A DNA stretch of 64,000 nt, from positions 6,549-70,548 of the forward strand of contig JACPSH010000004.1 in the NCBI GenBank assembly GCA_016193395.1, given 5' to 3'. Shown here piece after piece: positions 3,559 through 46,422 of the stretch. The first letter of the stretch is position 1. Each line of letters begins with the position of its first letter. Below the pieces are notes generated by a model that did no database searches, had not been told where the DNA came from, and saw only the letters and a list, made by a program, of their open reading frames with translations. Made by a program: the position numbers and the translations under genes. The stretch comes from Gammaproteobacteria bacterium. Lineage in GTDB: Bacteria; Pseudomonadota; Gammaproteobacteria; Eutrophobiales; Eutrophobiaceae.

Positions 3559-3578
3559 GGATCTTCCCTCTCCTTTTG

Positions 3579-3845
3579 ATGGCCACCGTCTGGATCCCGA
3601 CTCCGCTGCAAGCGCTCACCGGCGGTGAGGCCACCGTCCGCGCCACCGGCGGCACCGTCAAGGAACTCGTCGAAGACCTGGACCGCAGCTATCCGGGATT
3701 CAAGGAGGCGATAGTCGGGGAAGGCGTGCTCGTGCGCCCCGGCATCAGTGTCGTCGTGGACGGCAGCGTCGTGAAAAAGGGGCTGCTGCATCCGGTCGGG
3801 GCGGAAAGCGAAGTCTTCTTCATCCCCGCCATCGGCGGCGGCTGA
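3579..3845 (+). CDS. MoaD/ThiS-family ubiquitin-like small protein (C-terminal Gly-Gly)
   Basis: 88 aa from ATG 3579 (MATVWIPTPLQALTGG...). The sequence ends ...FFIPAIGGG, the beta-grasp sulfur-carrier signature. It lies 20 nt after the large subunit. Confidence 0.7.
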   Translation: MATVWIPTPLQALTGGEATVRATGGTVKELVEDLDRSYPGFKEAIVGEGVLVRPGISVVVDGSVVKKGLLHPVGAESEVFFIPAIGGG

Positions 3846-3880
3846 GGCGATCTCCTCAGGCGTAGCGACGGCGCCGCCTC

Positions 3881-5365
3881 ATGTCGAATACCTTTCCCGA
3901 AACACCGACCTACACCGGCTTCAATGCGCCGCGGCGCATCGAAGGCGAGGTCTTCGATCTCGAAGTCGACGGTGAACTGCCTGCTCGACTGAACGGGTCC
4001 TTCTATCGCTGCGGGCCCGATCCGCGCTTCGCGCCACGGCTCGGCGACGATATCAACATCAACGGCGACGGCATGGTCACGCTGTTCCGCATCAAAGACG
4101 GCCACGTGGACTTCCGCAGCCGCTACGTGCGCACCGAGAAATTCAGGCTGGAAACCATGGCGCGCAAGTCCCTGTTCGGCGCCTATCGCAATCCGTACAC
4201 GGACGATCCGGGCGTCGCCGGCCGCGATCGCACCACCGCGAACACGAACGCCGTATTCCACGCCGGCCGGTTGTTCGCACTCAAGGAAGACGGTCTGCCG
4301 CACGAGCTCGACCCGGACACGCTGGAGACCCGGGGGCGCCACGACTACGCGGGCAAGATGAAAAGCGAGACCGCCACCGCGCATCCCAAGTTCGACCCGC
4401 AGTCCGGCGAGATGCTCTCGCACGGCTACGAGGCGCGAGGACTCGCCTCCCGCGACGTGGCGCTCCAGGTCATAGCGCGCGATGGGAAACTGGTGCGGGA
4501 GGATTTCTTCATCGCGCCCTATTGCAGCATGATGCACGACTGGGCCGTCAGTGCGGGTCATTTCATTTTCCCGCTCTGGTCGACGACGGCGGACGAGGCG
4601 CGCATGCGCCAGGGCGGCCCGCACTGGGTGTTCGAGGCGGATCGTGATCTTGCGATCGGAATCATGCGCCGCGACGCAGACGTAAAGGACATCCGCTGGT
4701 ACCGCCTGCCGCCGGGCGGCGTCGGCCATATCCTCAATGCCTTTGACGACGGCGACAGGGTCTGCGTCGACCTGTTCATCAGCGCGCGCAACCAGTTCCC
4801 GTTCATCCAGAATTCCGACGGTGCGCCGTTCGACCGCGAGCGGGCCACGCCGCGGCTCACGCGCTGGACCTTCGACCTGTCGAAAAAGAACGATCGATTC
4901 GAAGCGAGGACCTGTTTCAGCGACTTCATGGAAATGCCGGCAACCGACCCGCGCTACCAGTTGCACGCGTACCGGCACGGATTCACGGCGATCGTCGATC
5001 CGTCGCGGCCGTTGAACGCGGCCGGCACTATCGGCGTCGGCTGGAACACGATCGCGCACGTGGATCTTTCGACGGGCCGGCTGGAGCGCTATTACGCCGG
5101 CGAAAAAACCACCTGCGGCGAGCCCTGCTTCATCCCGCGTTCGCCCTTCGCCCCGGAGGGGGACGGCTACCTCCTTTCCGTGCTCATCCGCGGCGATGTC
5201 GATTCGCACTCCGAGCTGATCGTGCTGGATGCGCAGCACATCGCCGACGGCCCGATGGCGACCGTGCGGCTGCCGTTCCGCATCCGCGCCGCGGTGCATG
5301 GGAGCTGGGTGCCGGCGGCTCAACCGCATCCGTCATTCCGGACCGAACCCGGCGCAGCCGGATGA
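3881..5365 (+). CDS. Carotenoid oxygenase family dioxygenase (lignostilbene dioxygenase / isoeugenol monooxygenase-like)
   Basis: 494-aa ORF. The N-terminus NAPRRIEGEVFDLEVDGELPARLNGSFYRCGPDP and the four His-containing blades are typical of the RPE65/CCD family. The last ~11 codons lie inside a REP-like unit. Confidence 0.85.
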   Translation: MSNTFPETPTYTGFNAPRRIEGEVFDLEVDGELPARLNGSFYRCGPDPRFAPRLGDDININGDGMVTLFRIKDGHVDFRSRYVRTEKFRLETMARKSLFGAYRNPYTDDPGVAGRDRTTANTNAVFHAGRLFALKEDGLPHELDPDTLETRGRHDYAGKMKSETATAHPKFDPQSGEMLSHGYEARGLASRDVALQVIARDGKLVREDFFIAPYCSMMHDWAVSAGHFIFPLWSTTADEARMRQGGPHWVFEADRDLAIGIMRRDADVKDIRWYRLPPGGVGHILNAFDDGDRVCVDLFISARNQFPFIQNSDGAPFDRERATPRLTRWTFDLSKKNDRFEARTCFSDFMEMPATDPRYQLHAYRHGFTAIVDPSRPLNAAGTIGVGWNTIAHVDLSTGRLERYYAGEKTTCGEPCFIPRSPFAPEGDGYLLSVLIRGDVDSHSELIVLDAQHIADGPMATVRLPFRIRAAVHGSWVPAAQPHPSFRTEPGAAG

Positions 5366-5380
5366 GCGTCCGGAATCCAG
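5332..5380. repeat. REP-like palindromic unit (GTCATTCCGG...CCGGAATCCAG family)
   Basis: GTCATTCCGGAC...GTCCGGAATCCAG with inverted ATTCCGGAC/GTCCGGAAT termini. Related copies occur at 8 other sites in the window. Confidence 0.8.
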
Positions 5381-5472
5381 AAAATAGTCGGAACACCTCC
5401 GGAACACTGTGATGCGGTCCTCCAAAGTCGGCGAACAAAGCCTCCGTGATCGTGCAGAATGGCTCACAGGGG

Positions 5473-5512
5473 CTGGATTCCGGATGCGGCCTGCGGCCGA
5501 TCCGGAATGACG
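5473..5512. repeat. REP-like palindromic unit, opposite orientation
   Basis: CTGGATTCCGGATGCGGCCTGCGGCCGATCCGGAATGAC. Confidence 0.8.
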
Positions 5513-5526
5513 GAAGGATCCGCGCG

Positions 5527-5619
5527 ATGGAAACGACCGCACCCCTCTTCCACGCCGACCACGTCGGCAGCCTGCTGCGGCCGCCAGAACTGCTGGCCGC
5601 GCGCGAGGTGTGGGGCTGA
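5527..5619 (+). pseudogene. Fragment: N-terminal ~30 codons of a cobalamin-independent methionine synthase (MetE C-terminal domain)-like protein
   Basis: METTAPLFHADHVGSLLRPPELLAAREVWG then stop. The ADHVGSLLRP..L..AR motif is the usual N-terminus of a ~370-aa family. The fragment sits between two REP-like units. Confidence 0.4.
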
Positions 5620-5638
5620 TGTCGCGACAAAGTCATTC

Positions 5639-5703
5639 GTCATTCCGGACAACCCCCCGGCCTGCACCGGGGCTAAAGGCTCACTCGCGGTTTCCGGAAT
5701 GAC
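5639..5703. repeat. REP-like palindromic unit (long spacer variant)
   Basis: GTCATTCCGGA...TCCGGAATGAC, with 11-bp perfect inverted termini around a 43-bp spacer. Confidence 0.75.
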
Positions 5704-5718
5704 GGATTCCCGGTATAT

Positions 5719-6120
5719 GTGGCAAAACAAGCCAAGAAGCACACGACGACAAAAAGGCCATTAAAGCTGAGCCTGTCCATTGCCGTCGGCGATTACGACC
5801 GCACGCGCCCGCTCGTAGACGGCAGCGTCCGCATCGACGGCGTCGATCCGAATTTCATGCTCCTGTCGCCGGAAGAAATGTTCTTCCGTGCCTTCCGGCA
5901 TGCCGATTTCGACGTCGCCGAGCTTTCGCTCAGCAGCTTCACACTGCGCGCGGCGCGGCGACTTCTCGGACAGGATTTCTGGTCTTACGGGCTCAATGAT
6001 TCGAACCGAAAGACGCTCGATACGTTCCTCCGCCACCACCACGCCCAGGGTCTCTCGCCGCGGCGCGTCGCGGTGGAGGAACTGTTCCACCCGGCAGCGT
6101 TTGAAATTTATAAAATCTGA
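5719..6120 (+). pseudogene. Internally deleted remnant of a 4,5-dihydroxyphthalate-decarboxylase-like (periplasmic-binding-fold) gene
   Basis: The 133-aa ORF joins a family-typical N-terminus (LSLSIAVGDYDRTRPLVDGSVRIDGVDPNFMLLSPEEMFFRAFRHADFDVAELSLSS) directly to the family C-terminus (DFWSYG...FLRHHHAQGLS...EELF). Full-length members are roughly 330 aa. Confidence 0.55.
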
Positions 6121-6135
6121 TCGGCCGCGGCATTC

Positions 6136-6993
6136 CTAATTCGCTGCCGGACGCGCGCTTATTGCCTGACGGAACTCGCGCAGCTTGTTCTTGATGATGG
6201 CGGCGTTATCCGGACCGATGCGGATCAGTGTCTTCTGGCCCGCTGACTTCGATTCCAGCGCGGCGTCCGCGAACTTGTAGTAGACGGCGGGCTGCACGAG
6301 CTTGATCGTGCCCTTCACCTCCGGCGTCGCGAGCAGGTGGTCGATGACTTCCAGCAGGCGCTGGTTGAACTGCTTTTGCGGGTAGCCGAGATCGGCGTAG
6401 GCCTGCTGGAACAGCGGATAAAAGCGGAAATAGGTCCCCGCGAGCTTTGCCGTGTCCACCGCGCCGACCAGCCGTATCAGCGGCGCATAGCGCCTGGCAT
6501 TCTCCGGGTTCAGGGTCACGTTACCCTCCTGGCCCGAGGTCATGAACTTCCCGGCGCTGGGCATGATCGGCCAGAGGCGCAGCGCGAGCTTGTCGCGCGG
6601 CAGGTTGTCCACTGTGGCGACGATGCGGCGGATGATCTCGGGCGGCTGGAGGATCTGCGTGGCCGTTTCCCTGCCGACCAGTCCCGCCAGCGCGTCGCTA
6701 ACGGCCGCGTCGCTTTCATTCAATGCCGGCAGTGGCGCGGTCTGGGCCGGGACGGGGACTGGCGCCACCTCTTCCACGGGCTGCGGTTCCGGCGCGGGCG
6801 CCGCAGGTTGCGGTTCGATCTGCGGGGTCGGCGGCGCAGGCTCGACTTCCGCCGGTTCCTGACGTGTGTAGACATAGGCGCCGCCGGCAACCGCGAGCAC
6901 GGCAGCGATTGCCCATAGAACGCCGAACCTCGGCCTCTGTTCGCTCCGCGGGCGGCGATCCGGGTCGGGCGAGATGTGCATCGGTTCCTGCAT
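6136..6993 (-). CDS. DUF3014 family membrane-anchored protein
   Basis: Start MQEPMHISPD (alternative ATG at 6981). It has one TM segment, a Pro-rich linker, then conserved DNLPRD...RYAPLIRLV...FYPLFQQAYADLGYP. The rest of the 396-aa ORF upstream overlaps the divergent SDR gene. Confidence 0.75.
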   Translation of the reverse strand: MQEPMHISPDPDRRPRSEQRPRFGVLWAIAAVLAVAGGAYVYTRQEPAEVEPAPPTPQIEPQPAAPAPEPQPVEEVAPVPVPAQTAPLPALNESDAAVSDALAGLVGRETATQILQPPEIIRRIVATVDNLPRDKLALRLWPIMPSAGKFMTSGQEGNVTLNPENARRYAPLIRLVGAVDTAKLAGTYFRFYPLFQQAYADLGYPQKQFNQRLLEVIDHLLATPEVKGTIKLVQPAVYYKFADAALESKSAGQKTLIRIGPDNAAIIKNKLREFRQAISARPAAN

Positions 6994-7065
6994 CCGCCGT
7001 ATTATGCCGGGAAACCGGAACGCCTGACTATCGAAAGGGCCGTAAAAATCAAGAGGGGGAATTCC

Positions 7066-7953
7066 ATGCAAGAGGTAAAGGGAAAGGTCGCATTCATCAC
7101 TGGCGGGGCGAGCGGCATTGGGCTCGGCATCGCGAAGGCCTGCGTGAACGCTGGCATGAAAGTGGTGATGGCCGACATCCGCCAGGATCACCTGGACGAG
7201 GCGCTCAAGTTCTTCAAGGACAAGGGCCAGGGCGGCCATGTCCACGGCATCAAGCTCGATGTGACGGACCGCGCGGCTTTCGAACGCGCCGCGGACGAGA
7301 CGGAACGCGTATTCGGCAAGGTCCACCTGCTGGTCAACAATGCCGGCGTCGGCGTCATCGGGCCGATCAGGCAGACCAAATACGCCGACTGGGACTGGGG
7401 GCTGGAAGTCCTGATCGGCGGCGTAGTCAACGGCATCCAGACCTTCCTGCCGCGCCTACTCAAGCACGGCGAAGGCGGTCACATCTGCAGCACCTCGTCC
7501 ATGACCGGTCTGCTCCCCATCGGACGCTCCGCCATCTACTCGCTGGCGAAAGCCGGGCTGGTCGGCATGTCGGAAGCGATGCGTGAAGAACTCCGGGAGG
7601 ACAACATCGGCGTGTCCGCGTTCTGCCCGGGCCCGGTGCAGACCAACATCCGCGAAACCGGCAAGCTGCGCCCCGAAAAATACAAGGACAGCGGTTACAT
7701 CGACGCCGAGAAGCAATTGCAGCAGCGCCCCAATTCCAGCAACTGGATGAGCCACGAGGAATGCGGCGAGCGCGTGCTCGCCGGGATCCGCCGCAACGAC
7801 CTGTACATTTTCACGCACCGCGAATTCAAGGAAGGCCTCGCGCGCAAGTGCGAGCTGATGCTGGATTCGTTTCCGGACGAGCCGATCGACACGGTGCGCG
7901 CCAACGAGATCGGTTTCCTGCTGTGGCCACCGGTATTTGCGAAAAGGAAATGA
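7066..7953 (+). CDS. Short-chain dehydrogenase/reductase (SDR)
   Basis: ATG 7066 is preceded by AAGAGGGGGA. It has the TGGASGIG dinucleotide motif, NNAG, and the YSLAK catalytic Tyr-x3-Lys. Confidence 0.85.
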   Translation: MQEVKGKVAFITGGASGIGLGIAKACVNAGMKVVMADIRQDHLDEALKFFKDKGQGGHVHGIKLDVTDRAAFERAADETERVFGKVHLLVNNAGVGVIGPIRQTKYADWDWGLEVLIGGVVNGIQTFLPRLLKHGEGGHICSTSSMTGLLPIGRSAIYSLAKAGLVGMSEAMREELREDNIGVSAFCPGPVQTNIRETGKLRPEKYKDSGYIDAEKQLQQRPNSSNWMSHEECGERVLAGIRRNDLYIFTHREFKEGLARKCELMLDSFPDEPIDTVRANEIGFLLWPPVFAKRK

Positions 7954-8042
7954 CGGCCGATTCAAAGAGAATGATTCGAAGGCAGACGGGGGCGGATTGG
8001 AGTCCGTCCCCGGAACACGCCCGGTAACAAGGGGGATCGGAC

Positions 8043-9569
8043 ATGGCTGGAGCAGCGCCCGCCGGCGGCAAGCCCGAAACCAGGCTCGAACGGTCGAAGG
8101 AAGACGTCGACCGCGAATTCAGGATGCTCATCGACGGCGAGTGGACGGCGGCGCGCGGTGGCCGGACATTCTCGTGCGTCGATCCATTCCTGGAGGAAAG
8201 CTGGGGGCGCGTGCCGCGCGCGGACGCGGACGACGTCGATCGGGCCGTGCGTGCCGCGCGCCGCGCCTTCGATGACGATGGCTGGCCGAAAACGCCGCCG
8301 GCCTGCCGCGCCGCGCTGCTGCGCAAGCTCGGCCAGTTGATCGAAGAGAATCTGGACGCGCTGGTGCTGCAGCAGATCCGCGAGAACGGCCGGCTCGTCT
8401 CCGAGATGCGGCCCGGCACCGGCGCGGTCGCCACGGCGTGCTATTACTACGCGGGACTGGCGGAGACCTTCCACGGCGTCTCGTTGCCGGTCAGCGTCCC
8501 GAACATCACGAGCTACACGCTGCGCGAACCGATCGGCGTAGTCGCCGCCATCACGCCCTGGAACGCACCGCTGGTGCTGCTCGGTTGGAAACTGCTGCCG
8601 GCACTTGCGGCCGGCAACACGCTGGTCATCAAACCCTCCGAGGTGACGCCGACTTCCACCCTTCTGCTCGCGGAACTGGTGACCCGGGCCGGCTTCCCGA
8701 AAGGCGTGGTGAATGTCGTCACCGGGTACGGCGATCCGACAGGCATGGCGCTGGTGAACCATCCCGGCGTGGACAAGATCGCCTTCACCGGCTCGACCGT
8801 GACCGGCAGGAAGATCGCCCATGCCGCCGCCGAGCGCAACGCGCGCACCTCGCTCGAGCTGGGCGGCAAGTCGCCGAACATCATTTTCGCTGACGCCGAT
8901 CTCGACAACGCGGTCAACGGCGCCATGGCGGGGAGCTTCTCCGCAACGGGTCAGGCCTGCATGGCCGGATCGCGCGTGCTCATCGAGGGCAAGGTGTACG
9001 ACGAGGTGGCCGCGCGCATCGCCGGGCAGGCGAAGAAGATGATCCCCGGCGATCCGCTCGATCCGAAGACGCAGCTCGGACCGCTCGCCTCGAAGATGCA
9101 GCTCGACAAGGTGCTGGGGTATTTCGAGATCGCGAAGCGCGACAGGATTGAAATCCTCACCGGCGGGAAGCGACTCGAGCGCAAGGGATTCTTCGTCGAG
9201 CCCACCGTGTTCGGCAGGGTCGACAACGCCTGCCCGGTGGCGCGCGAGGAGATCTTCGGACCGGTCGTCTCGCTGCTGCCCTTCAACGGCGAGGACCAGG
9301 CGATCGCCATTGCCAATGACACGAGCTACGGGCTCGCCGCCGGCGTGTGGACCGAAAACGTCCGGCGTGCCCACCGCATGGTGCAGCGGCTGCGCGCGGG
9401 CACGGTGTGGGTGAACAACTACCGGCTCGTGTCCCACGCCGTCCCGTTCGGCGGCTACAAGCAGAGCGGCGTCGGGCGCGAGATGGGGCCGGAGGCGCTG
9501 AACGAATTCACCGAAGTGAAGAGCGTCTGGATCGACACCGGCAACAAGGTCAATTTCCCGGCCGGGTAA
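8043..9569 (+). CDS. NAD(P)-dependent aldehyde dehydrogenase (paralog 1)
   Basis: 508 aa with ALDH signatures FTGST, ELGGKSPNIIF and catalytic Cys context GQACMAGSR. Confidence 0.9.
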   Translation: MAGAAPAGGKPETRLERSKEDVDREFRMLIDGEWTAARGGRTFSCVDPFLEESWGRVPRADADDVDRAVRAARRAFDDDGWPKTPPACRAALLRKLGQLIEENLDALVLQQIRENGRLVSEMRPGTGAVATACYYYAGLAETFHGVSLPVSVPNITSYTLREPIGVVAAITPWNAPLVLLGWKLLPALAAGNTLVIKPSEVTPTSTLLLAELVTRAGFPKGVVNVVTGYGDPTGMALVNHPGVDKIAFTGSTVTGRKIAHAAAERNARTSLELGGKSPNIIFADADLDNAVNGAMAGSFSATGQACMAGSRVLIEGKVYDEVAARIAGQAKKMIPGDPLDPKTQLGPLASKMQLDKVLGYFEIAKRDRIEILTGGKRLERKGFFVEPTVFGRVDNACPVAREEIFGPVVSLLPFNGEDQAIAIANDTSYGLAAGVWTENVRRAHRMVQRLRAGTVWVNNYRLVSHAVPFGGYKQSGVGREMGPEALNEFTEVKSVWIDTGNKVNFPAG

Positions 9570-9631
9570 TACCATGCGAATAGGGGACGGATTTAAAATC
9601 TTCCCCCTTACATTTATAAAGGAGACTGCAG

Positions 9632-10003
9632 ATGATTGGTTACGTCACTCTCGGAACGAACGACATCGCCCGTGCGGCGAAATTCTACGATGCGCTGCTG
9701 GGCGAGATGGGCGCCAAACGATTTATGGAATCGGAACGCTTTATTGCCTGGGCCGCCAGTCCGGACGCGCCGGCGCTCGCCGTGATCAAGCCCTTCGACG
9801 GAAAGGCGGGCACGGTCGGCAACGGCGTCATGGTGGCCCTGGCCGCCGACAGTCGGGAGAAGGTCAATGCGCTGTACTCAAAGGCAATTGCGCTTGGCGC
9901 AAAAGACGAGGGCAAACCCGGGCCGCGCGGCGAAGGAGGTTTCTACGCCGGCTACTTCCGCGACCTCGACGGCAACAAGCTGAACTTCTTCCATATGGGA
10001 TAG
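9632..10003 (+). CDS. VOC (glyoxalase/bleomycin-resistance/dioxygenase) family protein
   Basis: 123 aa, MIGYVTLGTNDIARAAKFYDALL...GYFRDLDGNKLNFF, the typical single-domain VOC fold pattern. RBS AAGGAGA lies upstream. Confidence 0.8.
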   Translation: MIGYVTLGTNDIARAAKFYDALLGEMGAKRFMESERFIAWAASPDAPALAVIKPFDGKAGTVGNGVMVALAADSREKVNALYSKAIALGAKDEGKPGPRGEGGFYAGYFRDLDGNKLNFFHMG

Positions 10004-10004
10004 C

Positions 10005-11429
10005 TTGGACTCCAACTACGACCTCGTGGTGATCGGCTGCGGCGCGGCGGGACTTGCCGCCGCGGTCAGCTACGCGGAGGCCGCCGCGACTCAAGAACAC
10101 CGGGCGCGCATCGCTGTGCTTGAACGTGCCACCAAGGAAAACCGGGGCGGGGCCACGCGCTGGACGAGCTCCTGGTTCCGCATCACCGAAGATCGCAGGC
10201 TGGATCCGAATTTCATCGGACAGATGGAGGCCGTCTCGGGCGGGCGCGCCGATCTCGACTATTGCAGGACGCTCGAACGCGAGGTGCCCGGCACGCTCGA
10301 CTTTCTCGAACGGCACGGCGTAGCACTCATTTATTTCAAGCAGCCGTTCCCGAACCGCAACACAGGCGGCGGACTCGGCATGCCGGCACGTGGCGGCTTG
10401 GGGATCGTCGATGGGTTGGCCGCGGCCGTCGATGGCGTGAATGGCGCCGAAATCCAGTACGAAACTGAAGCGGTGCGGCTCAGCCTCTCGGCTGACGGCG
10501 GCGTCGACGGCGTGGTCGTGCGCGGGCGGAACGGCATGCCGCGCACGCTGAATTCGGCCGCGGTCGTGATTGCCGCGGGCGGATTCGAGGGCAGTCCTGA
10601 AATGCTGGCCCGGCACCTCGGGTCACGCGGCCGCGATCTGCCTCTGGTCGCGCCGACGCTCGAGAACAACCGCGGCGACGGGATCCGCATGGCTATCGAG
10701 GCCGGCGCCGGCACCGCCGGCCAGTTCGACATGTTCCACGGCGAACCGGCCGATCCGCGATCGCGGAAGCCCGACGCAGTGGTCTATGCCTTTCCCTACG
10801 GCATCGTCGTCAACCGCCATGCGCGGCGTTTCTACGACGAGGGCAAGGACAGTTTCGATGCCACCTTCGAGGAATTCGCATTCGAGATCTGGTGCAACCA
10901 GGAGCAGAAGGCGTTTCTCATCGGCGATCAGACGACGCTCGCGATCGAACACGTCGACAAGATCATCTTGACCGACCAGCCGCCCCTGGCCGCGGCCACG
11001 ATCGGGGAGCTGGCCCCATTGCTCGGAGTCGACCCCACTGCACTGGAGCGCACCGTCGCGGAATACAACGCCGCTGTCGGACCCGGCCGGTTCGACGCCC
11101 ATTCCCGCGACGGCAAATGCACGCGCGGCATCGATCCTCCGAAGTCCAACTGGGCATTTCCGCTGAACTCGCCGCCCTTCATTGCCTGGCCGCTGACCTG
11201 CGCGATCACGTTCACCTTCGGCGGCATCCGCACGGACGACTCGGCGCGCGTTGTCACGCCCGCGGGCCAAACCATTCCGGGACTGTATGCCGCGGGGGAA
11301 GTCACGGGTCTCTACTACCGCCGTTATCCGGCGGGGACCTCCGTGCTCAGGGCCGCCACTTTCGGCCGCATCGCCGGCGCACATGCCGCCTCGGCGAAAG
11401 CAGGCGCGCGGCGAGCCGCGAGGCGATAA
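10005..11429 (+). CDS. FAD-dependent oxidoreductase, tricarballylate dehydrogenase (TcuA)/fumarate-reductase-flavoprotein-like
   Basis: TTG start, DLVVIGCGAAGLAAA dinucleotide fold, and a C-terminal GLYAAGEVTG motif. Confidence 0.8.
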   Translation: MDSNYDLVVIGCGAAGLAAAVSYAEAAATQEHRARIAVLERATKENRGGATRWTSSWFRITEDRRLDPNFIGQMEAVSGGRADLDYCRTLEREVPGTLDFLERHGVALIYFKQPFPNRNTGGGLGMPARGGLGIVDGLAAAVDGVNGAEIQYETEAVRLSLSADGGVDGVVVRGRNGMPRTLNSAAVVIAAGGFEGSPEMLARHLGSRGRDLPLVAPTLENNRGDGIRMAIEAGAGTAGQFDMFHGEPADPRSRKPDAVVYAFPYGIVVNRHARRFYDEGKDSFDATFEEFAFEIWCNQEQKAFLIGDQTTLAIEHVDKIILTDQPPLAAATIGELAPLLGVDPTALERTVAEYNAAVGPGRFDAHSRDGKCTRGIDPPKSNWAFPLNSPPFIAWPLTCAITFTFGGIRTDDSARVVTPAGQTIPGLYAAGEVTGLYYRRYPAGTSVLRAATFGRIAGAHAASAKAGARRAARR

Positions 11430-11432
11430 ACC

Positions 11433-12260
11433 GTGCGCGTCATCCCGCTCGAATCCGTCCCGCTGGAAGAGCGGGCGCATGTCCGCGAGGGCGCATTCCG
11501 ATCGCGGCGGCTGCTTACCGGCGAAGCCGGCACGCCCGGAAACTTTTCGCTGCAACTTGTGACGACGCCGCAAGGCTACCAATCGCCGCGGCACCGCCAC
11601 AATTTCGACCAGGTGCGCTGCCAGATCGAGGGCGATTTCGATTTCGGCCCGGACGGCGAAATGCACCCCGGCAGCATCGCCTATTTCCCCGAAGCCACGC
11701 ATTACGGACCGCAATCCAGCACGGGCAGCAGCACGACGCTCGTGCTGCAATTCGGCGGCGCCAGCGGCAGCGGATATATCTCCGCCGCGCAGTACGCACG
11801 TGCCGCCGCCGAGCTGGGGAAACGCGGGACGTTTGCGAAGGGCGTCTACACGCGCATCAAGACGGACGACGGCAAAATCAACCAGGATGCCTATGAAGCC
11901 GTGTGGGAACAGGTCAACGGCCGTCCGCTCGTATACCCGAAGCCGCGTTACGCGCGGCCGGCGTTCATGGAGCCGGATCATTTCCACTGGGTGCCGCTCC
12001 CGGATCGGCCGGGCGCGTCCTGCAAACTGCTCGGCGTGTTTTCGGAGGCCCGGACGAAACTGGCGCTCTATCGCATCGCGGCGGGCGGCGTCCTGCCGCT
12101 CGAGGACCACTCCATCTATTTTGTCCGTTCCGGCACGGGCGCCACGGATGGCGGCGATTACGCCGCACAGACGACAATCCATCTGGCGCCGGGGGAGGCT
12201 GTCTCCGCCCGGGCACGGACTGATACGGAGTTGCTTCAAATCGGCCTGCCGCAACTCTAG
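11433..12260 (+). CDS. Cupin-domain protein (two-cupin architecture), function unknown
   Basis: 275-aa ORF starting 4 nt after the flavoprotein gene. It has a His-rich cupin motif, SPRHRHNFDQV...GSIAYFPEATHYG. Confidence 0.5.
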   Translation: MRVIPLESVPLEERAHVREGAFRSRRLLTGEAGTPGNFSLQLVTTPQGYQSPRHRHNFDQVRCQIEGDFDFGPDGEMHPGSIAYFPEATHYGPQSSTGSSTTLVLQFGGASGSGYISAAQYARAAAELGKRGTFAKGVYTRIKTDDGKINQDAYEAVWEQVNGRPLVYPKPRYARPAFMEPDHFHWVPLPDRPGASCKLLGVFSEARTKLALYRIAAGGVLPLEDHSIYFVRSGTGATDGGDYAAQTTIHLAPGEAVSARARTDTELLQIGLPQL

Positions 12261-12318
12261 CCCGGAACGGCTGCGAACTGCCTGTTGCCAGTCGGGCTGT
12301 TCAGAGGCGACACGGTCT

Positions 12319-12461
12319 GGCCGGATTCATCCGCAGGTACTGAACGGCCGGGTGGCATCGGGCACACCTGGACCGCGCGCAGCGCAGGGGACCGAGCGAG
12401 CACGGACGGGTGTGCCCGAGGACAGGACCCGGCCGCCGACCGAGCTTGGATGAATCCGGCC
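12319..12461. repeat. 143-bp nested inverted repeat (MITE-like or structured element)
   Basis: The outer 14-bp perfect inverted repeat is GGCCGGATTCATCC (12319-12332) / GGATGAATCCGGCC (12448-12461). The inner 9-bp inverted repeat is GGGCACACC (12360-12368) / GGTGTGCCC (12409-12417). Confidence 0.5.
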
Positions 12462-12502
12462 GGATCGGCGACGGCTTGACTTCCCCGCCTGGCGTTACCA
12501 TA

Positions 12503-12522
12503 ATTTCTGTAATTACAGAAAT
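12503..12522. promoter_or_regulatory. 20-bp perfect palindrome, candidate operator of the GbsR-type regulator
   Basis: ATTTCTGTAATTACAGAAAT ends 12 nt upstream of the GTG start at 12534, in an AT-rich patch of an otherwise GC-rich spacer. Confidence 0.5.
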
Positions 12523-12533
12523 AAACGTACGTC

Positions 12534-13061
12534 GTGAAACTCTCCCCCGTCGTCAGCAAATACATCGTCCACTGGGGCGAAATGGGATCGCGCTGGGGCG
12601 TGAACCGCACCGTGGCGCAGATCCACGCCCTGCTCTACCTGTCGCCGGAACCGCTCACGGCGGATGAAATCGCCACCGCGCTCGCCGTGGCGCGATCCAA
12701 CGTCAGCACCAGCCTGCGCGAGCTGATGAATTTCCGGCTCGTCAAGATCGCGCACAAGATCGGCGACCGCCGCGACTACTTCGAGTCGGTGCAGGACATC
12801 TGGGAGCTGTTTTTCATCATCGTCGAGGAACGCAAGCGCCGCGAGCTCGATCCGATCATGGCCGTTCTCGAAACCTGCGCGGCGGAGGCTGACGCGGACC
12901 GGAATCTCAACGAAGTCACCCGGGGACGCATTCGCACCATGCACGAGTTCCTGCAATCGACCATGCAGTGGTACTCGGAGGTCCGCGAGATCCCCATCCC
13001 CCTCTTGAAGAAGCTGGTGAAGATGGGATCGAAGGTGGCGAAGTACGCAGGCAAGTGGTGA
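12534..13061 (+). CDS. GbsR/MarR-family winged-helix transcriptional regulator
   Basis: 175 aa. HWGEMGSRWGVNRTVAQIHALLYLSPEPLTADEIATALAVARSNVSTSLRELMNFRLV matches the GbsR/OpcR-type N-terminal wHTH. Confidence 0.8.
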   Translation: MKLSPVVSKYIVHWGEMGSRWGVNRTVAQIHALLYLSPEPLTADEIATALAVARSNVSTSLRELMNFRLVKIAHKIGDRRDYFESVQDIWELFFIIVEERKRRELDPIMAVLETCAAEADADRNLNEVTRGRIRTMHEFLQSTMQWYSEVREIPIPLLKKLVKMGSKVAKYAGKW

Positions 13062-33743: not shown

Positions 33744-33819
33744 TGGTGGGCCGTGCAGGAATCGAACCTGCGACCAACTGGTTAAAAGCCAGCTGCTCTA
33801 CCGACTGAGCTAACGGCCC
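33744..33819 (-). tRNA. tRNA-Lys (anticodon UUU)
   Basis: The reverse complement reads GGGCCGTTAGCTCAGTCGGTAGAGCAGCTGGCTTTTAACCAGTTGGTCGCAGGTTCGATTCCTGCACGGCCCACCA. It has a 7-bp acceptor stem, anticodon loop CUUUUAA, T-loop GGTTCGATTCC and an encoded CCA. Confidence 0.92.
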
Positions 33820-33820
33820 G

Positions 33821-33855
33821 GGGGAAGTGAAAAGTATAAAGTGAAAAGTGGAAAG
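33821..33855. repeat. Tandem 7-nt array (TGAAAAG family), unpaired half-element next to tRNA-Lys
   Basis: GGGGAAG TGAAAAG TATAAAG TGAAAAG TGGAAAG, the same unit as the hairpin arms at 40645-40760 and 41426-41511. Confidence 0.8.
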
Positions 33856-38628: not shown

Positions 38629-38639
38629 TTCCTGGCGGG

Positions 38640-38766
38640 ATGGCCGCTCCCGGCCCTCCCTGGCCTCCGCGGCACCTGTACTTCCATGTGCAATGGCCGC
38701 TCCCGGCCCTCCCTGGCCTCCGCGGCACCTGTACTTCCATGTGCAATGGCCGCTCCCGGCCATCCC
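38640..38766. repeat. Tandem repeat, 53-bp unit x ~2.3
   Basis: ATGGCCGCTCCCGGCCCTCCCTGGCCTCCGCGGCACCTGTACTTCCATGTGCA occurs at 38640-38692 and identically at 38693-38745. A partial third copy follows. Confidence 0.9.
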
Positions 38767-38850
38767 GCCCCGCATCGTCGTTCAGTGGAGCCGGATTTAT
38801 ACGGCCGGATAGCCTGTTCCAGCCAGTTATGCGGGGCTTGCGCCCGGATG

Positions 38851-38888
38851 GTGTACCAAGTACACTGAGCTTATTGTATTACGTACAC
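38851..38888. promoter_or_regulatory. Two TGTA-N5-TACA palindromes, candidate NrtR operators
   Basis: GTGTACCAAGTACAC (38851-38865) and TTGTATTACGTACAC (38874-38888), with centres 23 bp apart. They end 9 nt before the nrtR start codon. Confidence 0.5.
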
Positions 38889-38896
38889 TAAGCAAC

Positions 38897-39559: not shown

Positions 39560-40638
39560 CTGTTCTGAACAACACGGTCGAGTTGCCTGACCGCCGTATT
39601 CCTCCGGAACTCGTGCCGGAGACGATCGTGGAAACACTCGAACCCGCCGAGCGAGATGAGCTGCGCGCGCGCATCAAGCGCCTCTTGAAGGAACAGGACG
39701 CGGTGCTGGTCGCGCATTACTACACCGATCCCGATCTGCAGTCCCTTGCGGACGAGACCGGCGGCACCGTATCGGATTCGCTGGACATGGCGCGCTTTGG
39801 ACACGAATCGAAGGCGCGCACGCTGGTCGTGTCCGGCGTGCGCTTCATGGGCGAGACCGCCAAGATCCTCAACCCCGAAAAGCGCGTGCTGATGCCCGAT
39901 CTGGCGGCCGAGTGCTCCCTCGATCTCGGCTGCCCGGCGGATGAATTCAGCCGCTTCTGCGACCAGCGCCCGGATCGCACCGTGGTCGTTTATGCCAACA
40001 CCAGCGCCGCGGTCAAGGCGCGCGCCGACTGGATGGTCACTTCCAGCAGTGCGGTGGAAGTGATCACTTACCTCATGCAGAAGGGCGAGAAATTCACCTG
40101 GGCGCCCGACAAATACCTCGGTCAGTACATCCAGGAACAGACCGGGGCCGACATGCTCATCTGGCAGGGCGCCTGTGTCGTGCACGAGGAGTTCAAGGGG
40201 ATTGAGCTCGCGGATCTGAAGCGCCAGCACCCCGAGGCAAGAGTCCTTGTGCACCCGGAATCGCCGGCGTCCGTCATCGAGCAGGCGGATGCCATCGCCT
40301 CCACCACCGGCATCATCCGCGCGGCGCAGGAAATGCGGGCGAAGGAATATATCGTCGCGACCGACAAGGGCATCTTCCACAAGCTCAAGGAAGCGGTGCC
40401 CGGCGCCGTATTCATCGAGGCCCCGACCGCGGGCCGGAGCGCCACGTGCAAAAGCTGCGCGCACTGTCCGTGGATGGCGATGAACACGCTCCGCAAACTC
40501 GCGCGCACGCTGGAGACCCGTGGAAATGAAATCCACGTCGACCCGAGGATCCTCGATCGCGCGCGCGTGCCCATCAAAAGGTTGCTGGACTTCGCAGAGA
40601 GCCGGCGCAAGACGATCTACGGCGCCAATGACGCCTGA
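39556..40638 (+). CDS. nadA: Quinolinate synthase NadA
   Basis: 360 aa, [10 protein letters not shown]...[13 protein letters not shown]...C..H (three-Cys Fe-S ligand pattern) and a typical length. Confidence 0.93.
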
Positions 40639-40643
40639 ACAAA

Positions 40644-40760
40644 GTGGAAAGTGAAAAGTACAAAGTGTAAAGGAGGAACTGCCGCGCACCTCCATTCATG
40701 GCCCTACGCTGTTTCCGTCTCTTTGCTTTTCACTTTCAACTTTTGACTTTTGACTTTTCA
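40644..40760. repeat. Hairpin whose arms are tandem 7-nt units (TGAAAAG family), locus A
   Basis: The left arm is TGGAAAG TGAAAAG TACAAAG TGTAAAG. The right arm is CTTTTCA CTTTCAA CTTTTGA CTTTTGA CTTTTCA. Positions 40645-40665 pair with 40721-40739. Confidence 0.85.
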
Positions 40761-40785
40761 CTCTGGCCCTGGCCCGAAACTGCAG

Positions 40786-41448
40786 ATGCACAAGGAAAGC
40801 GTCGTGCTGGTGCACGGCCTGTGGTTCAACGGCCTCGACATGTCCCTGTTACGCCTGCGGCTCAACCGCGCCGGATACAATGCGCGCCAGTTTTCCTATC
40901 CAAGCGTGCGCTCCTCCCCGCTCATGAATGCCATGGCGCTGAATGCCTTCATGCGCCGTTTGAACTCGGACACGGTGCACCTGGTCGGCCACAGCCTCGG
41001 CGGCATCATCATCCGCCACCTGCTGCAGGAATATCCGGATCAGCGGCCGGGACGCGTTGTCACGCTGGGCACGCCGCACCATTCCAGCAGCGCCGCACGC
41101 ACGCTTTCGCACTGGCTGCCCGGCCGCATCGTGCTGGGCAAAAGCGTCCACGACGGTCTGCTCGGCGGCGCGCCGCGCTGGCCGGCGCAGCGCGAACTGG
41201 GCTGCATAGCCGGAACCCTGCGCCTCGGCATGGGGACGATCGTGCCGGGGATCCCGAGGCCCAGCGACGGAACTGTCGCCGTAGAGGAAACGCAACTGTC
41301 GGAGATGCGCGATCACATCGCGCTTCCGGTCTCGCACTTCGGCATGCTGCTCTCGTCCCGGGTCGCGAAGGAAGTCGTGCATTTCCTCCGGCACGGCCGC
41401 TTCAGCGACCACGCTGCGCGTGAGTTCAAAGCGAAAAGTGGAAAGTGA
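40786..41448 (+). CDS. Alpha/beta hydrolase (lipase/PGAP1-like fold)
   Basis: ATG 40786 (MHKESVVLVHGLWFNG), as the earlier track start lies inside the repeat array. It has a GHSLGG nucleophile elbow. The last codons (KAKSGK) are encoded by the next repeat. Confidence 0.75.
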   Translation: MHKESVVLVHGLWFNGLDMSLLRLRLNRAGYNARQFSYPSVRSSPLMNAMALNAFMRRLNSDTVHLVGHSLGGIIIRHLLQEYPDQRPGRVVTLGTPHHSSSAARTLSHWLPGRIVLGKSVHDGLLGGAPRWPAQRELGCIAGTLRLGMGTIVPGIPRPSDGTVAVEETQLSEMRDHIALPVSHFGMLLSSRVAKEVVHFLRHGRFSDHAAREFKAKSGK

Positions 41449-41511
41449 AGAGCAGGAAACGCCCGCCGTTGAAGTCTGCCGCGCTTTGCACTTTTCACTT
41501 TTGACTTTCCA
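41426..41511. repeat. Hairpin with 7-nt-unit arms (TGAAAAG family), locus B
   Basis: The left arm is TCAAAG CGAAAAG TGGAAAG TGAAGAG. The right arm is CTTTGCA CTTTTCA CTTTTGA CTTTCCA. Confidence 0.85.
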
Positions 41512-41585
41512 CTGCCTTTACGCCTCACCGGCACCGGGTGTTAAGATTCGCCGAATACCACCACCCGTATCCATTCCGGTATCCC

Positions 41586-42338
41586 ATGGCAGGCCACAGC
41601 AAATGGGCCAATATCCAGCACCGCAAGGGCCGCCAGGACTCCCGGCGCGGAAAGCTTTTCTCCAAGCTCATTCGCGAGATCACGGTCGCCGCGCGCAGCG
41701 GCGGCGGGCCCGATCCGGCCTCCAACCCGCGCCTGCGGGCGGCGATCGACGCCGCGGCGACCGCCAACATGTCGAAGGACACTATCGAGCGCGCCATCAA
41801 GCGCGCGGCGGGTCCCGGCGAGGGCGCGAATCTCGAGGAAATCCGCTACGAGGGATACGGCCCGGGCGGCGTCGCGGTGATGGTCGACTGCATGTCCGAT
41901 AACCGCAACCGCACCGTGGCGGAGTTACGCCATGCCTTCAGCAAGTGCGGCGGCAATCTCGGCACGGGCGGATCCGTCGCCTATTTGTTCACGAAGGCCG
42001 GCAGCCTCTCCTTCCCCGCCGGCACCGACGAAGACCGTCTGCTGGAACTCGCGCTGGATGCCGGCGCCGAGGACGTCGTGAGCAGCGAGGACGGCTCCTT
42101 CGAAGTCGTCACCGCGCCGGACGCGCTGGTCGAAATCAAGGAACGCCTGATCGGCTCCGGCCTGAGCCCGGAAAGCACCGAGGTGACCATGCGCGCCTCG
42201 ACCAACCAGAAGCTCGGCAGGGATCACGCCGAGAGCATGGTGCGGCTGCTGGAGATGCTGGAAGAACTGGATGACGTGCAGAAGGTGTACTCGAACGCGG
42301 ACATACCGAATGAGATTCTGGAGCAAATCGCGGGTTAA
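41586..42338 (+). CDS. yebC: YebC/PmpR family DNA-binding transcriptional regulator
   Basis: The MAGHSKWANIQHRKG start is diagnostic; 250 aa. Confidence 0.92.
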   Translation: MAGHSKWANIQHRKGRQDSRRGKLFSKLIREITVAARSGGGPDPASNPRLRAAIDAAATANMSKDTIERAIKRAAGPGEGANLEEIRYEGYGPGGVAVMVDCMSDNRNRTVAELRHAFSKCGGNLGTGGSVAYLFTKAGSLSFPAGTDEDRLLELALDAGAEDVVSSEDGSFEVVTAPDALVEIKERLIGSGLSPESTEVTMRASTNQKLGRDHAESMVRLLEMLEELDDVQKVYSNADIPNEILEQIAG

Positions 42339-42340
42339 AC

Positions 42341-42410
42341 CGTATCTTGTATCTTGTTTCTCGTATCGCGCAGGATCCATGTTGCGAGATGCGAGATACG
42401 AAAGACGAGC
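42341..42410. repeat. Hairpin with 7-nt-unit arms (CGTATCT family), locus C
   Basis: The left arm is CGTATCT TGTATCT TGTTTCT CGTATCG. The right arm is TGCGAG ATGCGAG ATACGAA AGACGAG. Positions 42341-42357 pair with 42384-42400. Confidence 0.8.
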
Positions 42411-42452
42411 AGCCCGCCAACCCAGGCGGCTGCGCGTCCCACAGGCGTCGTA

Positions 42453-43567: not shown

Positions 43568-43613
43568 GTGATCAGGAGGCGGGATTTGTTGGCCGGTGTA
43601 GGGCCGGATTCAA

Positions 43614-43666
43614 TGCACATGGAAGTGCAGGTGCCGCGGAGGCCAGGGACGGCCGGGAGCGGCCAT
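43614..43666. repeat. Inverted single copy of the 53-bp unit seen at 38640-38766
   Basis: TGCACATGGAAGTGCAGGTGCCGCGGAGGCCAGGGACGGCCGGGAGCGGCCAT is the reverse complement of the aspS-downstream unit, matching 51 of 53 positions. Confidence 0.9.
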
Positions 43667-43727
43667 CCGGCCGTCATCCGATTGCGGATGGCAAAGCCGG
43701 GCGTTAAACGGGAAAATAGGCTCGACG

Positions 43728-45873: not shown

Positions 45874-45965
45874 CAGCTACCGGCTACCAGCTACCAGCGA
45901 CAAGGGAAGGCCTTGTTGCAAGACCCGAGTCCCGAACCCCGAGTCCCGAACCCCGAGTCCCGAAC
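45874..45965. repeat. Two different 7-nt-unit arrays around a short hairpin (locus D)
   Basis: The first array is AGCTACC GGCTACC AGCTACC AGCGACA. The core hairpin is CAAGG-gaagg-CCTTG. The second array is (CCCGAGT CCCGAAC) x3, ending 2 nt before the tolR ATG. Confidence 0.85.
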
Positions 45966-46393: not shown

Positions 46394-46422
46394 GGGACTC
46401 GGGGTTCGGGACTCGGGACTCG
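46394..46422. repeat. 7-nt-unit array (locus E), reverse complement of the array upstream of tolR
   Basis: GGGACTC GGGGTTC GGGACTC GGGACTC G. Its first 22 nt (46394-46415) are the perfect reverse complement of 45926-45947 and 45940-45961. Confidence 0.9.

Follow-up and report, generated by a model that had tools for sequence, protein, structure and literature searches.

Heptanucleotide-repeat hairpins in the operon spacers of an uncultured gammaproteobacterium and their relation to known bacterial heptamer repeats

Here we describe tandem arrays of 7-nt units, several of them arranged as inverted pairs able to fold into hairpins, in a 64,000-nt stretch of DNA from an uncultured gammaproteobacterium (assembly GCA_016193395.1, contig JACPSH010000004.1, positions 6,549 to 70,548). 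This stretch, hereafter the window, has a G+C content of ~64% and is the only part of the genome examined for this organism. The arrays, nine to ten in number, are all intergenic and lie within six spacers, where they form three compact hairpins (A, B and C), one inverted pair around tolR, and two solo arrays (Table 1). The genes around them are those of a DUF885 protein, a tRNA-Lys on the minus strand, aspS, an NrtR-like regulator, nadA, an alpha/beta hydrolase, yebC, ruvC, ruvA, ruvB, ybgC, tolQ, tolR, tolA and tolB. An initial annotation had placed the loci in spacers of conserved housekeeping operons, and the gene order aspS-nrtR-nadA-hydrolase-yebC-ruvCAB-ybgC-tolQRAB is indeed common to relatives. 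It had not recognised a described repeat family. The hairpins do belong to a known class of bacterial intergenic heptanucleotide repeats, comprising the cyanobacterial STRRs, the GGGAATC pairs of Xanthomonas and the heptad stem of Coxiella; reports of heptanucleotide arrays exist for cyanobacteria (STRR), for Geobacter (PMC2700814) and for Beggiatoaceae (PMC4679880), and reports of inverted pairs for Xanthomonas (PMC4692102).

Tandem Repeats Finder independently called 7-nt units, in 2.7-6.0 tandem copies, at nine places in the window (33825-55, 40641-72, 40722-62, 41484-513, 42342-67, 42383-401, 45874-98, 45931-65 and 46394-422). A scan at lag 7 likewise counted nine period-7 arrays, compared to a mean of 0.53 and a maximum of three in thirty dinucleotide-preserving shuffles of the window, a 17-fold enrichment that marks the arrays as non-random, and periods of 4, 5, 8, 10 and 11 nt returned zero or one array each in the same scan. 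The view that neither coding nor helical phasing accounts for the 7-nt period is supported. Every array falls between 33.8 and 46.4 kb, where six out of ~10 spacers carry one, compared to none of the 12 gaps of at least 100 nt in the rest of the window (Fisher's exact test, p ~0.003, calculated by hand). The 5’ array of an element usually starts 2-4 nt past the upstream stop codon, as is the case for nadA, yebC, tolQ and tolR.

Each arm consists of about 4-6 tandem heptanucleotides, and the units found within 13 kb are of at least five unrelated kinds. The main one is the A/T-rich TGAAAAG, which recurs at 33.8, 40.7 and 41.4 kb; hairpins A and B and the array beside the tRNA gene have this unit in common, together with a 14-nt super-period, and their loops are loosely alike only. 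The units are not of the G-quadruplex type, with G-tracts being absent from TGAAAAG, CGTATCT and CAGCTAC, and only GGGACTC/GGGGTTC being G-rich. On re-reading, the arm sequences and coordinates that the initial annotation had quoted for hairpin A (40644-40760), including its inner GGAGG/CCTCC stem, were all correct, and its other loci (41426-41511, 33821-33855, 42341-42410, 45874-45965 and 46394-46422) agreed with the sequence. The inverted architecture it had assigned to 45874-45965 with 46394-46422 holds for the CCCGAGT/CCCGAAC array, which pairs across the whole of tolR, but not for the GCTACC array at 45874-98, which is without an inverted partner.

Table 1. Heptad arrays and associated stems, in coordinates of the window
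Feature	Position	Strand	Context
Solo heptad array GAAGTGA AAAGTAT AAAGTGA AAAGTGG AAAG	33821-33855		adjoins 5’ end of tRNA-Lys (33744-33819, minus strand)
Hairpin A, 5’ arm, 4.6 units AAAGTGA/TGAAAAG	40641-40672	+	begins 2 nt past nadA stop (40636-40638)
Hairpin A, left-arm heptads TGGAAAG TGAAAAG TACAAAG TGTAAAG	40645-40672	+	direct reading
Hairpin A, inner stem GGAGG / CCTCC	40672-40676 / 40689-40693	+	in the loop of roughly 50-55 nt
Hairpin A, 3’ arm, 6 units CTTTTCA/CTTTTGA	40722-40762	+	followed by hydrolase ATG at 40786
Hairpin A, right-arm heptads CTTTTCA CTTTCAA CTTTTGA CTTTTGA CTTTTCA	40726-40760	+	direct reading
Hairpin B, 5’ arm, TGAAAAG unit	41426-41452	+	hydrolase stop codon (41446-41448) inside arm
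Hairpin B, 3’ arm, CTTTTCA, 4.3 units	41484-41513	+	period-7 scan, fold and register test
Hairpin C, 5’ arm CGTATCT TGTATCT TGTTTCT CGTATCG	42341-42368	+	begins 2 nt past yebC stop
Hairpin C, 3’ arm GCGAGAT GCGAGAT ACGAAAG ACGAG	42383-42410	+	G.U wobble pairing, sense strand only
Solo array CAGCTAC, 3.6 units	45874-45898	+	directly after tolQ stop
CCCGAGT/CCCGAAC array, 14-nt super-unit, 3 copies	45921-45965	+	ends 2 nt before tolR ATG (45968)
GGGACTC/GGGGTTC array, inverted partner of 45921-45965	46394-46422	+	3 nt past tolR stop

Folding predictions were made for both strands of the compact hairpins, whose loops measure 8-55 nt and are gene-free. Hairpin A (40636-40770) reaches -38.5 kcal/mol on the plus strand (z = -3.0) and -36.9 kcal/mol on the minus strand (z = -1.1); for hairpin B (41420-41520) these values are -32.8 (z = -2.2) and -30.9 kcal/mol (z = -2.0), and for hairpin C (42336-42415) -30.3 (z = -4.9) and -20.4 kcal/mol (z = -1.5). 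Hairpin C is much stabler on the plus strand because it is partly paired through G.U wobbles, and in all three hairpins the sense strand is better than the antisense strand by 4-8 kcal/mol. Ungapped pairing between the arms repeats every 7 nt with 79-96% complementarity, so that the stems can slip in 7-nt registers, as had been proposed from the repeats themselves. RNAfold also predicts alternative pairings within the loop of hairpin A, whose 3’ arm is furthermore complementary to 41423-41454, across the hydrolase gene (40786-41448); the arms of hairpins A and B can also pair with each other. The solo array beside tRNA-Lys can be aligned to the left arms of both. At the tol genes, a 9-bp hairpin (45897-45905 with 45911-45919) follows the CAGCTAC array, and the two arrays that bracket the entire tolR gene can pair over 27-29 nt at 93-96% complementarity, for which a duplex energy of -67 kcal/mol is predicted. 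At hairpin B, the left arm encodes the final codons and the stop of the hydrolase gene (...KAKSGK*, 41426-41448), from which it follows that the array remodelled the C-terminus of this protein.

How do the same spacers look in relatives? Among species representatives, the best of the matches listed for YebC was 70% identical and came from a metagenome-assembled genome (MAG) of the Methylococcaceae, and an exact-protein look-up with the hydrolase and NadA returned no match. Across hairpins B and C and the tolR pair, five metagenome contigs from Logan that encode an identical YebC or TolR agree with the window at 99.9-100% identity. One Logan contig (L082, SRR12113428, positions 1-220) is identical to the window from 40974 on. 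The 5’ half of its hydrolase gene is divergent, and AATCACC x4 stands upstream in place of the CTTTTCA array; it is a recombinant allele or, alternatively, a chimera assembled from a co-occurring relative. More distant contigs carry other units at orthologous sites: a TTCAAGG/CCTTGAA hairpin in the nadA-hydrolase spacer (L019, z = -3.4), a GTGAAAT/ATTTCAC hairpin in the tolQ-tolR spacer (L025, z = -4.1), CCCGTCT x7 and CCCCAGT x4 in the hydrolase-yebC spacer (L052), and GGATTGA/TCAATCC in the yebC-ruvC spacer (L070). The loci of one genome thus share a unit, whereas orthologous sites in different genomes carry different units. L019 also has an AAAGTTC/AAGGTTC array, again of a unit unlike those of the window, beside a 5’ fragment of tRNA-Lys. 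In positions 160-600 of this contig, that fragment, GAGCTAACGGCCC, occurs four times after the intact tRNA-Lys, resembling serial integration scars, and one copy adjoins the heptad array. The possibility that the hydrolase gene is a recent insertion that arrived with hairpins A and B was rejected, since the gene order is syntenic in many gammaproteobacterial MAGs.

The relative L070, a betaproteobacterial MAG, holds a 125-codon gene in its ruvA-ruvB spacer, flanked by GGATTGA x4 and TCAATCC x4. Its product is a 23S_rRNA_IVP / TIGR02436 "four helix bundle protein" (PF05635, E = 6.5e-38), a distant relative of the Avd protein of diversity-generating retroelements and homologous to the solved, pentameric Xcc0516 (PDB 2GSC). 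The ruvA-ruvB spacer of the window, in contrast, has neither heptads nor a four-helix-bundle gene; it is unusually long (~160 nt, 43568-43727) and GC-rich, with a degenerate 10-nt repeat at 43641-43665.

We compared 80 metagenomic loci (290 kb) encoding relatives of the L070 protein with 53-82% identity. A period-7 array lies within 150 nt of the gene on the upstream side at 52 loci, on the downstream side at 63, and on both sides at 40, and arrays are denser close to the gene (2.5 per kb up to 200 nt away) than elsewhere on the same contigs (0.31 per kb). In total, 151 arrays have a period of 7, whereas periods of 5, 8, 10 and 11 nt gave 0, 1, 8 and 0, respectively. The 80 loci reduce to 17 genomic contexts (43 loci are thyA-folA, 16 ruvA-ruvB and 15 others), 15 of which have arrays. 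The flanking units vary (AGGATTG, GGGGATT, GGGATTT, CAGGTGT, GGGGTCA, CAGTGGT), and the two arms do so together: true pairs match at 6.24 of 7 positions, compared to 5.2 in permuted pairs (maximum 5.6 in 1000 permutations).

This association extends to groups for which heptamers have been described. By tblastn against plasmids, the gene was found mostly in Nostoc, Calothrix, Anabaena and Trichormus, which are STRR taxa, with flanks of GTAGGGA x8 / TCCCTAC x5 in Nostoc edaphicum, ACAGGTG / TGTCACC in Anabaena sp. 90, GGGTGTA / TACACCC in Calothrix and AGTCAGG / CTGACTC in N. punctiforme. In Xanthomonas, where the orthologue of Xcc0516 is located between accB and accC, its flanks are arrays of the CGGGAAT and CCATTCC types, which belong to the published GGGAATC family, with further arrays and gene-free pairs close to this locus. 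Other positions of such genes were also seen: in N. edaphicum, one sits between the two ribonucleotide reductase subunit genes, and that of the Anabaena sp. 90 plasmid pANA02 (positions 1486-1854 of the retrieved stretch) lies in a type I-D CRISPR-Cas operon, with cas6 and cas4 as its neighbours. On a plasmid of Gemmatirosa kalamazoonensis, the gene (about 1400-1900) is flanked by period-8 arrays of the CTCCTGCC type, in direct rather than inverted orientation. Within the library that could be searched, we found no paper stating a general association between PF05635 and heptamers.

For a sample chosen independently of the four-helix-bundle gene, we took 120 stretches of viral contigs that contain GGATTNN x4 (1.04 Mb). 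These yielded 453 period-7 arrays and 87 inverted pairs, the latter with loops of mostly 0-100 nt and with many different units per contig; 47 hairpins comprised 33 units. L203 is a phage-like contig from IMG/VR with a hit to major capsid protein E, in which a different heptad hairpin occupies nearly every intercistronic spacer of the structural gene module (1800-12920). The right arms often adjoin the next ATG. Related copies of hairpins form two pairs; one hairpin of ~97 nt exists in two copies, 8 kb apart, that are 93% identical including the loop. Taken across the samples, the four-helix-bundle gene is almost always located within a heptad hairpin, while most heptad hairpins are gene-free.

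Two further regularities emerged. Firstly, the 5’ arm is purine-rich in all 46 gene-containing pairs, with G exceeding C in 45 of them, and of 47 viral pairs without the gene, 40 have a 5’ arm with more G than C and two show the reverse. This strict polarity is identical when read from either DNA strand, and hairpins A and B of the window follow it. Secondly, the number of copies per arm peaks at 4 (median 4.3-4.4), which corresponds to stems of ~28-30 bp, similar to the 28-bp stem of Coxiella.

So what could these hairpins do? We tentatively favour the reading that they are dispersed spacer hairpins that arose from 7-nt slippage and fold-back copying, that are transcribed as part of operon mRNAs, and that probably serve as sites of double-stranded RNA processing or stability; by analogy with better-studied elements this is plausible, though we would stop short of calling the reading as a whole probable. 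In such a scheme, arrays would lengthen through slippage by 7 nt, and fold-back copying through template switching would keep the two arms complementary at the level of DNA. Whole hairpins would then be copied into other spacers of the same genome, as is seen in L203 and may likewise have happened in the window, and copies would persist only where coding sequence is spared. Within the operon mRNA, each hairpin is predicted to fold into an imperfect duplex of 20-30 bp that can slip between registers. By analogy with Coxiella, phage T7 and REP elements, such duplexes may act as intercistronic processing sites of the RNase III type or as stability sites, and since RNase III cuts duplexes of this kind, processing or stability is the most likely role for the hairpins. 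The four-helix-bundle protein is the best candidate for a trans-acting partner; the association is seen in many other genomes, and a role here is speculative.

Whether the better pairing of the sense strand reflects selection on RNA was considered as well. This explanation was dropped, as the G.U asymmetry of the three compact hairpins of the window does not recur in 45 hairpins with an enclosed four-helix-bundle gene and thus cannot be generalised. For these 45, sense and antisense duplex energies are alike (23 vs 20, p = 0.71), which argues for upkeep of complementarity at the DNA level, for example by fold-back template switching, and not for selection on one transcript.

That result, together with several other observations, must be set against the reading we favour. 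Transcription, folding and cleavage in this organism are all things that we infer, and the length of the unit, 7 nt, is left unexplained, as is the polarity of the arms, which hairpin C and the tolR pair even violate. Slippage between strains was not seen: none of the five same-population contigs differs from the window in copy number. Furthermore, neither tblastn nor the family hidden Markov model (HMM) detected a PF05635 gene in the window. The same HMM, which found 89 in the positive set, gave zero four-helix-bundle genes in the 1.04 Mb of viral sequence, and viral relatives of the gene amounted to three distant Avd-like hits only. As both the window and the hairpin-rich viral contigs lack the gene, the protein is not needed in cis and may be a mere passenger. 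Nor do gene-less hairpins appear to be deletion remnants of elements that once carried it, as alignments of their loops to such elements score below shuffled controls.

A broader proposition is that the heptad hairpins and the PF05635 genes they enclose constitute one unrecognised genetic system, in which the protein binds, generates or mobilises the arrays, and the gene-less hairpins are satellites comparable to those of REPIN/RAYT. We regard this as possible but rather doubtful. If true, a single system would explain the cyanobacterial STRRs, the heptamer excess of bacteria and the protein-coding intervening sequences of rRNA together. The comparison in any case joins three literatures, those of the STRRs, the Xanthomonas heptamers and the rRNA intervening sequences, and shows that the embedding of PF05635 genes in hairpins spans Betaproteobacteria, Xanthomonas, cyanobacteria and the rRNA intervening sequence of Coxiella. 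The family is thereby a concrete and testable candidate for the missing partner of the heptamers, and the window adds a clear case from beyond the usual taxa, in which one string of genes combines several different units.

Other explanations have to be weighed against processing or stability sites. An unlikely one, though the one that fares best, is that the arrays are periodic protein-binding sites, each heptad binding one subunit of a multimer such as the pentameric four-helix-bundle protein, a cold-shock protein or S1, so that translation or transcription of the neighbouring gene is regulated and the hairpin itself is secondary. Tandem periodic motifs are typical for the binding of multimers, right arms often adjoin the next start codon, four-helix-bundle genes reside within arrays with paralogues differing in unit, and a heptamer-binding protein, as yet unidentified, has been proposed earlier (Nostoc preprint, bioRxiv 10.1101/2022.06.06.494920; PMC4679880). 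However, the diversity of units, both in the window and among the viral hairpins, would require many binding specificities, and the window is devoid of a four-helix-bundle gene. A pentamer with one heptad per subunit, moreover, predicts five copies, and this version was rejected on the copy number that was found.

Less likely again is that the arrays are neutral by-products of a polymerase with a 7-nt bias, tolerated in spacers and having neither function nor partner. The excess of heptamer repeats known from many bacteria has been ascribed to polymerase slippage (PMC4692102), and both the variation of units from locus to locus and the lack of sense/antisense asymmetry in the larger set of hairpins agree with this. 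Slippage alone, however, does not explain why a matching inverted array should lie 8-55 nt away, why the arms co-vary, why a single unit turns up at distant spacers, why the polarity, with a G-rich 5’ arm, is so strict, or why there is such a tight tie to one protein family.

Equally improbable is that the hairpins are non-autonomous mobile elements of the REPIN or miniature inverted-repeat transposable element (MITE) type, mobilised by a transposase from another locus of the genome. The hairpin copied within L203, loop included, would be expected of such elements, as would units that are common within a genome and differ between species at orthologous spacers, and Xanthomonas, with its single-copy gene flanked by a dispersed repeat, resembles REPIN-RAYT (PMC4692102). 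On the other hand, no target-site duplication was visible by eye at the copies and hairpin borders examined, no transposase adjoins any hairpin (a search for RAYT genes in the window was not made), and the diversity of units per contig is far above that of REPIN or MITE families. Finally, intrinsic terminators or attenuators between genes, for which stable stem-loops directly after stop codons might be taken, are barely conceivable here: no U-tract follows any stem, a terminator scan gave 14 sites in the region compared to 9.6 ± 3.2 in shuffles, which is chance level, no plus-strand match corresponds to a whole array hairpin (the only plus-strand hits in arrays, at 46398-46421, fold within the tolR-tolA array and not between paired arms), the operons that contain the elements, such as tolQRA, are conserved and co-directional, and no element matches an Rfam family.

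The window contains other repeats as well. In the aspS-nrtR spacer, a 53-bp unit that is unrelated to the heptads is repeated 2.4 times with 98% identity (38640-38766), bracketed by a 22-nt inverted repeat (38634-38655 with 38748-38769). Just upstream of the gene for the NUDIX/NrtR-like regulator, palindromes containing GTACAC (TGGTGTACCAAGTACACTG ... TACGTACACT) are found at 38849-38895, which may be the operator of this gene. Among the covariance models of Rfam 15, only tRNA-Lys matched the window.

Heptanucleotide repeats have been known in bacteria since 1990, without an established mechanism or function. The STRR heptanucleotide repeats of cyanobacteria were reportedly described by Mazel et al. 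in that year. Like the arrays of the window, STRRs comprise several families of tandem heptamers that are intergenic and have no known function. Unlike these, they are mainly direct arrays in heterocystous cyanobacteria, whereas the host of the window is an uncultured proteobacterium of 64% G+C in which inverted pairing is the rule. Three heptanucleotides of Calothrix PCC7601 are mentioned in the study on Xanthomonas (PMC4692102). In Beggiatoaceae, TAACTGA direct repeats lie upstream of start codons (MacGregor 2015, PMC4679880), and the elements of Geobacter metallireducens are composed of four or five heptanucleotides (PMC2700814). Both resemble the window in that arrays of 2-6 heptamers, typically 4-5 copies, are mostly intergenic and frequently extend to just ahead of a start codon, without a Shine-Dalgarno sequence; they differ in being nearly all direct and dominated by one unit, with one inverted case reported in Beggiatoa.

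Closer in architecture are the ~70-75 inverted GGGAATC pairs per genome of Xanthomonas, which are capable of forming stem-loops, are mostly transcribed, and are conserved in position between species while varying in length and sequence (Rehm et al. 2015, PMC4692102). These share with the window the tandem 7-nt intergenic units with a nearby inverted partner, but consist of one dominant, G-rich and G-quadruplex-capable unit. The four-helix-bundle gene of the Xcc0516 type that such arrays flank is not mentioned in that paper. The intervening sequence in the 23S rRNA of Coxiella burnetii, in turn, encodes the protein S23p and has a stem of ~28 bp made of terminal inverted repeats, with two to three copies of GACAGAT, variable in number between strains, at its 5’ side; it is excised by RNase III, whose 5’ cut falls where the first heptamer repeat begins (Warrier et al. 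2016, PMC4990558). The stems of the window, with their tandem heptamers, fit this pattern of terminal inverted repeats. However, where the Coxiella element interrupts helix 45 of the 23S rRNA and carries the S23p gene inside, those of the window lie in mRNA spacers around loops without a gene; the window has no rRNA gene, and its elements are placed between protein-coding genes.

REP hairpins in operons of E. coli can protect or process mRNA. The hairpins described here are comparable to REP and REPIN sequences in being short palindromic elements scattered over operon spacers, although the arms of REPs are not tandem repeats. The flanking of a single-copy gene by a genome-dispersed repeat, as in Xanthomonas, likewise recalls REPIN-RAYT, with the difference that RAYT is a Y1 transposase, while the gene associated with heptads encodes a four-helix-bundle, Avd-like protein without known catalytic activity. 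In phage T7, hairpins between genes are cleaved by RNase III, and this cleavage is proven. The T7 sites are not built from tandem repeats, and the window is known from its sequence alone. Even so, like those sites, its hairpins are imperfect stems of 20-30 bp in the intercistronic spacers of what would be long polycistronic transcripts, a likeness that in L203 extends to nearly every spacer.

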